Positions 14,263 to 17,417 of a stretch of DNA of 64,000 bases are shown here, in pieces. Below the pieces are notes generated by a model. The model saw only the letters and a list, made by a program, of their open reading frames with translations. It had not been told where the DNA came from and searched no databases. The stretch's first letter is position 1. Each line of letters starts with the position of its first letter. The DNA lies in sequence record PZ179880.1. The stretch is one strand, 5' to 3'. The translations under genes and the position numbers were made by a program. This DNA is from a phage.

Positions 14263-14676
14263 TTATTCCTTAAAGTGAGCTTTCAACATCTGATACAAAG
14301 ACCATGCCTGTTCATTATTTTCAATAGTAACTTTCATTACAGGGAATTCTGTAAAATCTTCTATTTGTTCTTGCTCTTCCTGCTCTTGCTCTTCGGCTGC
14401 CTGGTATGGATTTTCCACTTCATCAAAGAACTTTGCATCGTCCGCTAAAAGACAAATATAATTTTCATCGCAAATATCTTTATATAAAAATAATGTTCTG
14501 CTAGATGTCATAATTTTAATTGGAGTTTGAAGAGAATCAACATCCAAGATTTTAAAAGGTTGCATATCTAAACGTTGTGCATAAATTTTATTCTCAGTAT
14601 GGTCTTCAATAAAAGCTTCTTGAGCTTGTTTATTTTTAAATTGATACCATTTATTAACTTCAAATTTAATAGCCAT
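14263..14676 (-). CDS. Hypothetical acidic protein (137 aa); position and size fit T4 goF, not sequence-verified
   Basis: Minus-strand ORF with [10 protein letters not shown] acidic tract. Confidence 0.5.
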
Positions 14677-14891
14677 TAATAAATTTCCTTCCAGTAAGTT
14701 GTACCGCCTTCAGTGATTTCACGGAATACACCGTAAATTGGTTGTTTATCACCGACTTTCTCATACACATAAACCGAAGTTAAGTGAGTAAACTTGCTAG
14801 TATGTTCCTTTTGAACTACTACCAAATCTGGATCGAATAATACATCTTCAAATTCGTTATTAGTGCAGTTCTGAACAATTTTACGTTTCAT
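14676..14891 (-). CDS. Hypothetical protein (71 aa); position and size fit T4 cef, not sequence-verified
   Basis: Minus-strand ORF with GAGGAAA SD, downstream of promoter at 15010-15038. Confidence 0.5.
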
Positions 14892-15009
14892 TACAATTTC
14901 CTCATTAATTGAACATTGGAGTGATGCGTTTCAGAAGAGTAGTAGCACCTTTGGCAAATTTTCCATTTTATTCTCCAAGTTGTTTTCTGTATCAGTAGTT
15001 GATATTGAT

Positions 15010-15038
15010 ATAGTACCATAATCAACTACTGATGTATA
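15010..15038 (-). promoter_or_regulatory. Putative T4-type early promoter (weak -35 TATACA, -10 TACTAT, TGn, UP element)
   Basis: Shares the gatattgatatagtacca and ttttatgaaaaaatttt blocks with other early promoters. Confidence 0.45.
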
Positions 15039-15063
15039 TAGTTTTATGAAAAAATTTTAAACT

Positions 15064-15552
15064 TTATGCATAGAGAGCTTTGCTATAGTGTTTAATCCAG
15101 CTTTCAGGAATGACTTTGTATGTTCCTAAAAATACCACATTATACAGCTTAACACCGTCTTCTACCCACTGATCGGTAATGTATGCGCACATAGCACGAG
15201 TATAAACAGCCGCACCATCATCTTTGATAAATTTAAATTCACAAGGAGCAATGAACTTAATAGCCTGACCGAGTTTCCACTTAAAGTCTACACCTACGTG
15301 CGAAGTATCAATCGTTTCAATTCCTTTAGCAGGAACAGCTTTCAAAAACGCAGACTCAAGAAATTTCGCGCGAACATAGCCAAACTGGGGTTTAGACTTT
15401 CCATCTTTAGGAATGATACGCACTTTTACTTCAGAATCTTCATCTTTAACACCATGTTTAAGCTGAATGCTTACAATTTCAACCAATTTTCCTGCTGCTT
15501 TAGAACGGGATTTATCAGATACACGAGCAATTTCACCAATATTAATAATCAT
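15064..15552 (-). CDS. motB: MotB (DNA-binding early protein)
   Basis: 162 aa MIINIGEIARVSDKSRSKAAGKLVEIV...; sequence and length match T4 MotB (memory). Confidence 0.9.
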   Translation of the reverse strand: MIINIGEIARVSDKSRSKAAGKLVEIVSIQLKHGVKDEDSEVKVRIIPKDGKSKPQFGYVRAKFLESAFLKAVPAKGIETIDTSHVGVDFKWKLGQAIKFIAPCEFKFIKDDGAAVYTRAMCAYITDQWVEDGVKLYNVVFLGTYKVIPESWIKHYSKALYA

Positions 15553-15596
15553 AGTTATCTCTCACTTGTTAAAAAGATTTTATACTCCACGGGACC

Positions 15597-15625
15597 ATTA
15601 TACTCTGGTCCCAAGAGTTTGTAAA
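15597..15625 (-). promoter_or_regulatory. T4-type early promoter upstream of motB (-35 TTTACA, -10 TATAAT)
   Basis: Minus-strand GTTTACA..N17..TATAAT; -10 sits in loop of hairpin gggacc..ggtccc. Confidence 0.6.
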
Positions 15626-15628
15626 CTA

Positions 15629-16168
15629 TTAATTCAAAATAGCTACCACTGCACTACGAGGTACTACGCTAAAATCACCTGCATGAACAACGTTCAGAAG
15701 TTCAACACCATCTTCAATCCACTGGTCTGTTACCCAACCACAGACCGAAATAAATGGGGTCTTAATAGCTACTGCACGAGTCAAAAGGTCAGTAGGATCG
15801 CATTCTTGGAAGAGGATAAGCTCTGCTTCAAAAACTATAGTTTTAATTACTTCATCATTATCTAAACGGTGCACTCGAATCACGTAAGCTTTATTCTTAT
15901 CATGCCAATTACTTTTTGAAAAACTTTTAACCACGAACTCGCCTTCACCAAAAACGCTAGTCAATGCTTTATAACCCAAATCTAGTTCAGTAGTTTTAAT
16001 TTCAGTTTCAACCAGTTTGTAGGTTTTGCCGATTTCAATAGCGGTAGTCATAGTAGGTTCCTTAATTTCCAGTGGTTTAACAGGGCATACATAAGTGCTT
16101 ACAACATCAAAATCAATCAGTTTAGCTACCGGATTTGGTGTGTATTCAGGATTATAATTAAATTTCAT
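15629..16168 (-). CDS. MotB paralog (179 aa) sharing MotB C-terminal domain
   Basis: CGWVTDQWIEDGVELLNVVHAGDFSVVPRS aligns with MotB CAYITDQWVEDGVKLYNVVFLGTYKVIPES. Confidence 0.6.
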   Translation of the reverse strand: MKFNYNPEYTPNPVAKLIDFDVVSTYVCPVKPLEIKEPTMTTAIEIGKTYKLVETEIKTTELDLGYKALTSVFGEGEFVVKSFSKSNWHDKNKAYVIRVHRLDNDEVIKTIVFEAELILFQECDPTDLLTRAVAIKTPFISVCGWVTDQWIEDGVELLNVVHAGDFSVVPRSAVVAILN

Positions 16169-16169
16169 A

Positions 16170-16670
16170 TTATCTCATTTCAATAAAATCTACGAGTTCA
16201 GCATGTGATTTGCGGAACATTACTTGGTGCCCGCCAATGATAACTTCATCTTCAGGAACTTCATATACAGCGAGATAAAATCCTTTAGAAGATAATTCTT
16301 CGCGTTCTTCTCGCGTGAACCATCTCATCATATCATATTCGCTAGCGAAAGCAAAATGATAAAGAGCTATAAACCATCCTGGAATATGATATTCTACTCC
16401 AACATAATCTTTCTTGAACTTAGTATTAATTACTATATTAGCGTTTTTAACTAATAGTTTATCTTCGTGTGGTAAAGGAATTCTTTTATTATTATCGCTA
16501 TGATGCATAAAATTAGGTCTATCATAACCTACGTGTAATAACCACTCTTCGCTCCATGAATCTATTATACTCCTGTATGGTGTTATTTGAACACAAAGAT
16601 TTCGACGCATTGTTATAGCATCTTCATAATCAAGAATGCTAAACGATGATTCAACACGATAAATTTTCAT
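16170..16670 (-). CDS. Hypothetical protein (166 aa from MKIYRVESSF...)
   Basis: Track ORF trimmed to ATG at 16670, downstream of promoter at 16698-16726. Confidence 0.5.
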   Translation of the reverse strand: MKIYRVESSFSILDYEDAITMRRNLCVQITPYRSIIDSWSEEWLLHVGYDRPNFMHHSDNNKRIPLPHEDKLLVKNANIVINTKFKKDYVGVEYHIPGWFIALYHFAFASEYDMMRWFTREEREELSSKGFYLAVYEVPEDEVIIGGHQVMFRKSHAELVDFIEMR

Positions 16671-16697
16671 TTTATTATCCTCAGTAGCTATGATGTT

Positions 16698-16726
16698 ATA
16701 ATACCACAACTAACCGAGGAAGTAAA
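16698..16726 (-). promoter_or_regulatory. T4-type early promoter (-35 TTTACT, -10 TATTAT, TGn)
   Basis: Minus-strand GTTTACT..N17..TGGTATTAT just after dexA stop. Confidence 0.6.
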
Positions 16727-16733
16727 CAACTTT

Positions 16734-17417
16734 TTATCGTTTTGTTGGAAGAGATAGAGGATCGCACTCTTCCTCTGACGGAGCATCTTCAAGACCCATA
16801 GCATATCGCAAAGCATACTTCATCATCAGGATGTCTTTCGCACAGTCATGAATAGAATCATGTGCAACGAATCCATCCAAAGTTCCCTTTGGAAGAGGAC
16901 ACGTGGTCATATCACGAACAAGCAGAAGTGCTTCAATTCTGGTACGAATATCACGCTGATTCCAGAATTTACAAGGTTCTAACTTAAATGTGTCAAGCTC
17001 ATTCTCGGAAACGCCGTTAAGACGTTGAATATCGCGAATGAGATCAACTAAAATTGGAAAATCAAACGACATTCCACGGCACCAGCCCTGAGATTTCCAA
17101 GGATCGATATTATGCGCATTGATGTAATCATTAAATTTTGCAATACCATCGATAGTGCTTACATCTTCATTTGATGGTGCAATATTTTTTCGAGCTTCAG
17201 GAGACTGATTTTTCCACCATTCGATAGTGCTTTTAGTAAAAAGACGATGTCCTTTTTGGCTTTTTAAATCAAATTTGATTTTAATGCCGCGTGAAACTAA
17301 TTCATCAAATGTTTCAACTACTTCTGGATTAGGGTCAAAGGCAATAACAGCCAAATCAATAACAGCTGCCTTTTCACCGCTTCCCATTGTTTCAAAATCT
17401 ATAATAAAATCAAACAT
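16734..17417 (-). CDS. dexA: Exonuclease A DexA (DEDDh 3'-5' exonuclease)
   Basis: 227 aa from MFDFIIDFETMG... (exo motif I), matching T4 DexA (memory). Confidence 0.9.
   Translation of the reverse strand: MFDFIIDFETMGSGEKAAVIDLAVIAFDPNPEVVETFDELVSRGIKIKFDLKSQKGHRLFTKSTIEWWKNQSPEARKNIAPSNEDVSTIDGIAKFNDYINAHNIDPWKSQGWCRGMSFDFPILVDLIRDIQRLNGVSENELDTFKLEPCKFWNQRDIRTRIEALLLVRDMTTCPLPKGTLDGFVAHDSIHDCAKDILMMKYALRYAMGLEDAPSEEECDPLSLPTKR

Follow-up and report, generated by a model that had tools for sequence, protein, structure and literature searches.

The window analysed here is the whole 64,000-nucleotide stretch of phage DNA in sequence record PZ179880.1, which comes from a T4-like phage (Tequatrovirus). 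Two adjacent minus-strand genes of this window, motB and an open reading frame (ORF) of 179 amino acids (aa), are the subject of this study, and their features are collected in Table 1. The region from 14800 to 16800 matched 681 phage records in GenBank, almost all from Tequatrovirus or other T4-like phages that infect Escherichia, Shigella, and Yersinia, and the top matches were 97% identical to it. Its G+C content is 31-37%, and the GC skew stays negative over its whole length, in agreement with minus-strand genes.

Table 1. Features of the motB.1-motB region in the window, with isoelectric points (pI) and net charges of the encoded segments; AF2, AlphaFold 2; pLDDT, predicted local distance difference test.
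Feature	Positions	Strand	Evidence or remark	pI	Net charge
motB, 162 aa + stop codon	15064..15552	-	Pfam PF17613, phrog_1671	9.3	+7
MotB N-terminal SH3/KOW-like barrel, residues 1-67	15352..15552	-	AF2 strands; HHpred KOW assignment in PMC7827196	9.75	+5
MotB C-terminal small beta-barrel domain, residues 88-162	15067..15291	-	AF2 strands, phrog_2333		
MotB residues 88-119				8.99	+2
Shared core in MotB, residues 120-155, AMCAYITDQWVEDGVKLYNVVFLGTYKVIPESWIKH	15088..15195	-	BLASTP, hhalign	5.49	-1
Intergenic region motB.1-motB with motB early promoter	15553..15628	-	promoter scan		
179-aa ORF, assigned as motB.1 orthologue, long form, 179 aa + stop codon	15629..16168	-	phrog_2333, hhalign, genome slot	4.9	-8
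N-terminal leader of ORF, residues 1-42	16043..16168	-	AF2 pLDDT <50, predicted disordered		
MotB.1-type N-terminal domain of ORF, residues 43-123	15800..16042	-	hhalign, phrog_2333		
MotB-like C-terminal domain of ORF, residues 124-179	15632..15799	-	phrog_1671, AF2, alignment, charge	4.3	-4
Shared core in ORF, residues 141-176, SVCGWVTDQWIEDGVELLNVVHAGDFSVVPRSAVVA	15641..15748	-	BLASTP, Pfam, hhalign	4.1	-4
T4 MotB.1 (143 aa)				4.6	-7
motB.2, 166 aa from ATG	16170..16670	-	ORF list, T4 annotation, phrog_1106		
goF homologue	14263-14676		same cluster as motB		

The motB product matched Pfam PF17613 over its full length (E 6.7e-109) and phrog_1671 (E 3.5e-77), and was 96% identical to MotB of the T4 group. 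MotB is a basic early protein of high abundance, whose DNA binding is tight and non-specific. It is recovered together with H-NS and StpA on purification and changes H-NS footprints (PMC6070864, PMC7827196); its overexpression is toxic, and MotB doubles the burst size (PMC6070864, PMC7827196). The AF2 model of MotB (mean pLDDT 78.7) showed N-terminal strands at residues 8-11, 23-30, 41-46, and 56-61, a disordered linker at 69-86, and C-terminal strands at 97-109, 115-131, 134-141, 144-149, and 153-156 (pLDDT 84-93).

Through profile searches, we found that the 179-aa ORF matched phrog_2333, the MotB.1 family, over the full length of the profile (E 4e-81), and that the re-sequenced T4 MotB.1 (143 aa) fell into the same PHROG (E 1.8e-68). 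A profile-profile comparison (hhalign) of the ORF family with the alignment of T4-type MotB.1 gave a probability of 100% and an E value of 7e-50 over 160 columns. The minus-strand gene order of the window, dda, two small ORFs, dexA, motB.2, the 179-aa ORF, motB, a small ORF, cef, goF, a 39.2-like gene and gene 39, is the same as in the T4 annotation, where motB.1 occupies the slot of the 179-aa ORF. Comparison with the T4 annotation and with related phages placed the ORF directly upstream of motB, with dexA and motB.2 preceding it on that strand; the preliminary description of this DNA had put it downstream of the motB promoter, which is correct only in plus-strand coordinates, since the ORF lies 5' of both motB and its promoter. 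The full-length alignment to T4-type MotB.1 and the gene order were both checked as possible refutations of orthology, and both agreed with it. On the strength of the phrog_2333 match, the hhalign result and the T4 gene order, the assignment of the 179-aa ORF as a long-form orthologue of the T4 early gene motB.1 is well supported.

The two orthologues are unequally similar along their length. BLASTP aligned only the last 74 residues of the ORF with T4 MotB.1 (66% identity), and in DNA the T4 and window sequences can hardly be aligned over the 5' two-thirds of motB.1, whereas their identity is 95-100% in its 3' end, in the intergenic region and in motB. Beside the slot between motB.2 and motB and the C-terminal domain, the ORF has in common with T4 MotB.1 (phrog_2333; among the 'Category 2/4' homologues of PMC7827196) a predicted beta-rich N-terminal domain that is related at profile level only (hhalign, phrog_2333), the two N-terminal domains being too diverged for BLASTP. 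It differs in an extra disordered leader of 42 residues, which contains DFDVVSTYVCP and is not in T4 MotB.1, and in length, with 179 aa in the window, 143 aa in re-sequenced T4, and 119 aa in the T4 reference annotation. AF2 placed strands at residues 49-52, 77-86, 93-101, 106-113, and 120-123 and a helix at 60-73 of the N-terminal domain, with low confidence (pLDDT 54-65). For T4 MotB.1, an LSm-like/SH3-like N-terminal domain was predicted by Kim et al. 2025 (PMC12152347). T4 GoF and Frd.2, of the LSm-like fold family, are proposed to have an N-terminal five-stranded bent beta-sheet in common with T4 MotB.1 (PMC12152347), but they have no MotB-type C-terminal domain, as the hidden Markov model (HMM) of that domain found no more than two copies in the window. 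A weak match of T4 MotB.1 to phrog_622 was also seen (E 0.0019).

The C-terminal parts of MotB and the ORF were then compared by several methods. BLASTP aligned residues 120-151 of MotB with residues 141-172 of the ORF without gaps, with 17 of 32 positions identical and 25 positive (E 1e-11); the preliminary description, which had reported about 20 of 30 positions alike between the two C-termini, was accurate on this point. The Smith-Waterman score was 109, compared with 29.7 +/- 4.7 (maximum 60) in 2000 shuffles (z ~17), and hhalign, applied to profiles of 44 MotB homologues and 31 ORF homologues, extended the match to MotB 120-155 and ORF 141-176 (36 columns, probability 98%, E 1.2e-13), so that the pairwise comparison proposed in that description gave a significant score by all three methods. 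Pfam PF17613 also scored 34.1 bits on ORF residues 141-174, above its cut-off of 25, through profile positions 120-153 of 162 only. The shared core of the ORF was nearly invariant across its 31 homologues. Its consensus in the family is G-W/Y-[IV]-T-D-Q-W-[IV]-E-D-G-V-x-L-x-N-V-V, and the MotB.1 motif DPTDLL...GWVTDQWIEDGVELLNVVHAG..VVPRS, at ORF residues 124-172, was invariant or nearly so in the same homologues, with an identical core in T4 MotB.1.

The shortness of the similarity, just ~36 residues, is the one point that would favour its being a product of chance or low complexity, or the 179-aa ORF not being a real gene. Chance or low-complexity similarity was excluded by the E value of 1e-11, the z of ~17 against shuffles, the Pfam score above the curated cut-off and the profile comparison, and the ORF is conserved over its full length in 197 homologous protein clusters with an invariant C-terminus; we regard this explanation as having a vanishingly small probability. 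All 197 clusters came from T4-like phages or phage-contaminated assemblies, and among the 120 of them listed, the homologues were 72-97% identical to the ORF and nearly all 176-183 aa long.

The similarity was also found beyond the 36-residue core. The phrog_1671 (MotB) profile aligned with ORF residues 122-177, and the phrog_2333 profile aligned reciprocally with MotB residues 82-152. AF2 placed C-terminal strands of the ORF at 132-136, 141-152, 155-162, 165-170, and 174-178, in the same order as in MotB; when MotB residue 120 was set on ORF residue 141, the last four strands coincided and the first hairpin of the ORF was ~18 residues shorter, which matches the alignment. Structure prediction, the other check proposed in the preliminary description, thus gave a matching order of C-terminal strands, but from a poor ORF model (mean pLDDT 56.6). 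The reciprocal PHROG matches and the coinciding last four strands indicate that the homology covers the whole C-terminal small beta-barrel and not just the core. Neither BLASTP nor hhalign aligned anything N-terminal to this domain, nor any of MotB residues 1-119, with the ORF, and the KOW-like motif V-S-x-x-S-R-S-K-A-A-G is absent from the ORF sequence. The ORF is similar to T4 MotB (PF17613; phrog_1671) in a C-terminal barrel with [ST]-D-Q-W-[IV]-E-D-G-V-x-L-x-N-V-V and in being an early gene of the same non-essential cluster in the same group of T4-like phages, but it has no basic KOW-like N-terminal domain, has the shorter first hairpin, and is acidic (pI 4.9) where MotB is basic (pI 9.3).

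A six-frame HMM search of the 64-kb window gave the two known copies of the domain and no third. A search for solved structures of either family gave no PDB match; one marginal kinase match (E 0.003) was judged spurious. The two-barrel, SH3-like architectures of eIF5A, NusG/Spt5 KOW and tandem Tudor proteins resemble these proteins in fold only, the fold being very common, and there was no PDB match to indicate a relationship at sequence level.

The C-terminal domain shared by MotB and MotB.1 and the hypothesis of a duplication were published in 2021 (PMC7827196), and Patterson-West et al. 2021 sorted MotB homologues into categories with distinct N-terminal domains (PMC7827196). Table S4 of that paper holds, as MotB homologues, ECML-134_009 and UFV13 g011, which we found to be close homologues of the window ORF (180 aa and 177 aa; P0094 and P0047 in our set). 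The shared domain of the gene pair is thus real but already known, and as stated adds little. What the preliminary description had called a tandem duplication with a divergent N-terminus holds in part: a homologous C-terminal domain joined to unrelated N-terminal parts in adjacent genes fits duplication, but a simple tandem event is a simplification, because the event, an old one, lies within a family that shuffles its N-terminal modules.

The age of the duplication was assessed from the 36 shared codons. Over these 108 nt, nucleotide identity was 50%, with identical bases at 21, 24, and 9 of 36 first, second, and third codon positions, and the same codon was used at 6 of the 17 identical residues. 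With only 9 of 36 third positions identical, synonymous sites are saturated, which points to an old duplication whose similarity was kept by selection at the protein level. Recent gene conversion or recombination between the neighbours could also keep two copies similar, and in its favour are the common orientation of the adjacent genes, the heavy recombination of T4-like genomes, and a 3' end of motB.1 whose conservation between phages far exceeds that of the 5' part. However, a shared segment that is 50% identical, with third positions at the random level and a common codon at so few of the identical residues, does not fit a recent exchange, and the MotB and MotB.1 cores keep their own K-L-Y-N versus E-L-L-N and F-L-G versus H-A-G across hundreds of phages. 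Gene conversion is consequently very improbable, and the codon data support well an old motB/motB.1 duplication, with the core maintained by purifying selection.

The domain layouts within the family support well an origin of motB and motB.1 in an old duplication, after which N-terminal modules were exchanged. The C-terminal small beta-barrel (~55-75 residues) is fused to interchangeable N-terminal SH3-like modules, the module being a basic KOW-like barrel in MotB and probably an LSm-like/SH3-like barrel in MotB.1, here behind the disordered 42-residue leader. The window ORF is composed of the leader, an N-terminal domain of type A and the C-terminal domain, whereas T4 MotB.1 (143 aa) is composed of an N-terminal domain of type B and the C-terminal domain. 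In L008 and P0242, a leader-like motif lies between the type B domain and the C-terminal domain; in L009 (1844-2626, a VR25-like phage) and P0234, the leader is followed by two tandem type A domains and the C-terminal domain (~250 aa); and P0241 has an additional N-terminal domain. In P0235, P0237, P0238, P0243, and P0246, a KOW-type MotB N-terminal domain is joined to a short MotB.1-type C-terminal domain.

A linear motif, DFDVVSTYVCP, was observed at residues 19-29 of the ORF (16082-16114, minus strand), within the predicted disordered leader, and once in the window. Its general form, D-x-D-[IVL]-x-x-[MTI]-Y-x-x-P, sits, depending on the family member, in a leader at the N-terminus or in the linker that joins the two domains. 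It is carried by the window ORF, L008, L009, P0237, P0238, P0242, P0243, and P0246, some of which have a KOW-type N-terminal domain, and it may be a docking motif.

A search of 1.84 billion proteins with the C-terminal-domain profile gave 35 representatives, ~28 of which look genuine; 24 of the 35 were examined, and all those taken as genuine carry the domain at the C-terminus. P0247, P0249, P0250, P0252, P0254, and P0255 are long repetitive proteins in which ~20-25 profile positions are matched repeatedly, and they were set aside as spurious, P0250 alone having been examined. A scan of IMG/VR yielded seven loci, and the wider survey was made by tblastn on GenBank phages, where the domain was found in 781 records at 1687 places. 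Among the matches listed, each genome has two or three copies and every record is a T4-like enterobacterial phage. These results support well that MotB and MotB.1 form one small family, found only in T4-like phages in the searches made here.

In public assembly data, we also observed a 43-aa protein (P0251) in which the first 17 residues of MotB.2 (MKIYRVESSFSILDYED) are fused to the last 26 of MotB.1 (GVELLNVV...AILN). It corresponds to window 16170-16670 joined to 15632-15715, with nearly all of motB.2 and motB.1 gone, and this natural deletion fits the dispensability of both genes. The 29-aa 'Category 3' peptide of RB69 (Patterson-West 2021) may be a similar remnant.

The preliminary description had taken the shared piece for a DNA-binding domain. 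The MotB authors considered that MotB could bind DNA through its KOW-like N-terminal domain or through its C-terminal domain (PMC7827196), and they tied the basic character of MotB to DNA binding (PMC6070864). The positive charge of MotB lies in its N-terminal domain and in residues 88-119, a basic hairpin that opens the C-terminal domain and is largely missing from MotB.1; the 36-residue core has a negative net charge in MotB and in the ORF alike (Table 1). Within the core, D, Q/R, W, E, G, L, N, and V are invariant, and there is no conserved basic residue among them. A computed pI of 4.9, together with a net charge of -8, speaks against the ORF being a basic non-specific DNA binder of the MotB kind, toxic to E. 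coli. The DNA-binding function was therefore assigned to the shared piece too early.

From these properties, we propose that the shared core would be central to the structure or the interactions of the barrel and would not form a basic surface for DNA contact, and that MotB most likely binds DNA non-specifically through its basic N-terminal domain together with the first, basic hairpin of the C-terminal one. MotB.1, acidic and without this hairpin, probably lacks the DNA-coating behaviour of MotB. Through the common C-terminal domain it would more likely contact the partner or complex that MotB contacts, or else MotB, while its N-terminal domain would supply a different activity. This mechanistic part as a whole, a core that serves as an interaction heart and a MotB.1 that acts through C-terminal protein contacts, is tentative, and we hold it at somewhat less than even odds. 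A more specific version, in which the shared barrel would not bind DNA but would be a docking or oligomerisation module, and acidic MotB.1 would pair or compete with the basic, toxic MotB that coats the nucleoid, or reach the MotB partners H-NS and StpA, and so tune MotB activity, appears clearly unlikely.

Several points weigh against our interpretation. HHpred in PMC7827196 assigned the C-terminal domain of MotB to the OB-fold of cold-shock DNA-binding type; given this, nucleic-acid binding by the shared domain is possible, and acidic proteins are able to bind nucleic acids through local patches. Because AF2 modelled the ORF poorly, it is mainly sequence profiles and secondary structure that support the fold correspondence between the two proteins. 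Deletion of motB.1 from T4 gave no phenotype under laboratory conditions (PMC12152347). Under a different explanation, the shared domain would be a true nucleic-acid-binding OB/SH3-like domain and MotB.1 a second DNA or RNA binder, acting in the manner of MotB with another N-terminal specificity module. The low pI of the ORF and of its C-terminal domain (4.3), a core in which D, E, and D are conserved but basic residues are not, and the absence from MotB.1 of the basic first hairpin of MotB all speak against it. MotB.1 also had no effect when tested with an RNA reporter (PMC12152347), but the 13.8 kDa given there matches the truncated 119-aa form discussed below. We consider nucleic-acid binding by both proteins through the shared domain a possible but rather unlikely explanation.

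Considering all of this, the best explanation overall, to which we give a probability of roughly 0.85, is that the 179-aa ORF is the motB.1 orthologue and that MotB and MotB.1 belong to a modular family with a shared barrel, derived from an old duplication, with a putative mechanism based on protein contacts.

Between the two genes, the motB promoter was found to be near-consensus, with a -35 element TTTACA at 15625-15620, a spacer of 17 and a -10 element TATAAT at 15602-15597 (11 of 12 positions matched), and the intergenic region is 100% identical to that of T4. A stable RNA hairpin at 15584-15618 of the minus strand (CUCUUGGGACC...GGUCCCGUGGAG), identical in T4, encloses the TATAAT, the fold of the region having -26.5 kcal/mol and a z of -3.8. 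Only transcripts that read through from upstream would contain it, and it is no canonical terminator, because there is no T-run directly behind it.

On the other side of motB.1, the stop codon of motB.2 lies two bases before the motB.1 start. Some GenBank records, such as that of Shigella phage ESh16 (L001, 1762-3369), name motB, motB.1, and motB.2 alike 'transcriptional regulator'. We considered motB.2 as a third family member and rejected it: it did not match the C-terminal-domain HMM and belongs to a different PHROG (phrog_1106, unknown function). On these two grounds, the label on motB.2 looks like annotation spill-over. Between motB and cef, a small ORF at 14891-15025 of the minus strand encodes 44 aa in the window; it has 89 aa (270 nt; L002, 1606-1875) in the Pu-Krd-SF phages, and none is annotated in T4. 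The ORF, which differs between close relatives, thus marks another variable spot of the cluster.

The T4 reference itself has a one-base frameshift in motB.1. Sequence comparison showed that motB.1 of NC_000866.4/AF158101.6 has one extra G, ATTGGAAGATGG instead of ATTGAAGATGG, which truncates the reference protein to 119 aa ending in ...WVTDQWIGRWR, inside the conserved core. The reference gene is at 2292-2651 of our NC_000866.4 locus (L003), and the site of the extra G is equivalent to about 15713-15724 in the window. The extra G was the sole difference between NC_000866.4 and MT984581 over 519 nt. Eleven other T4 records together with RB55 and RB59 (13 records) matched over 518 nt, one base shorter; the site was read in MT984581 alone of the 13, where, without the G, the product has 143 aa and the full core.

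Kim et al. 2025 had motB.1 synthesised and reported a monomer of 13.8 kDa; they cited NC_000866.4 for the mutagenesis plasmids, and not explicitly for the motB.1 construct (PMC12152347). The computed mass of the 119-aa form is exactly the reported 13.8 kDa. If the published construct was the 119-aa product, as this value suggests, it was without two-thirds of the module, and the function of the real MotB.1 would never have been assayed. The acidic shared core and the overall acidity of MotB.1 make the label 'DNA-binding domain' for the shared piece premature, and work on the reference ORF concerns a protein that has lost most of this domain, which could explain negative results and is easily corrected.

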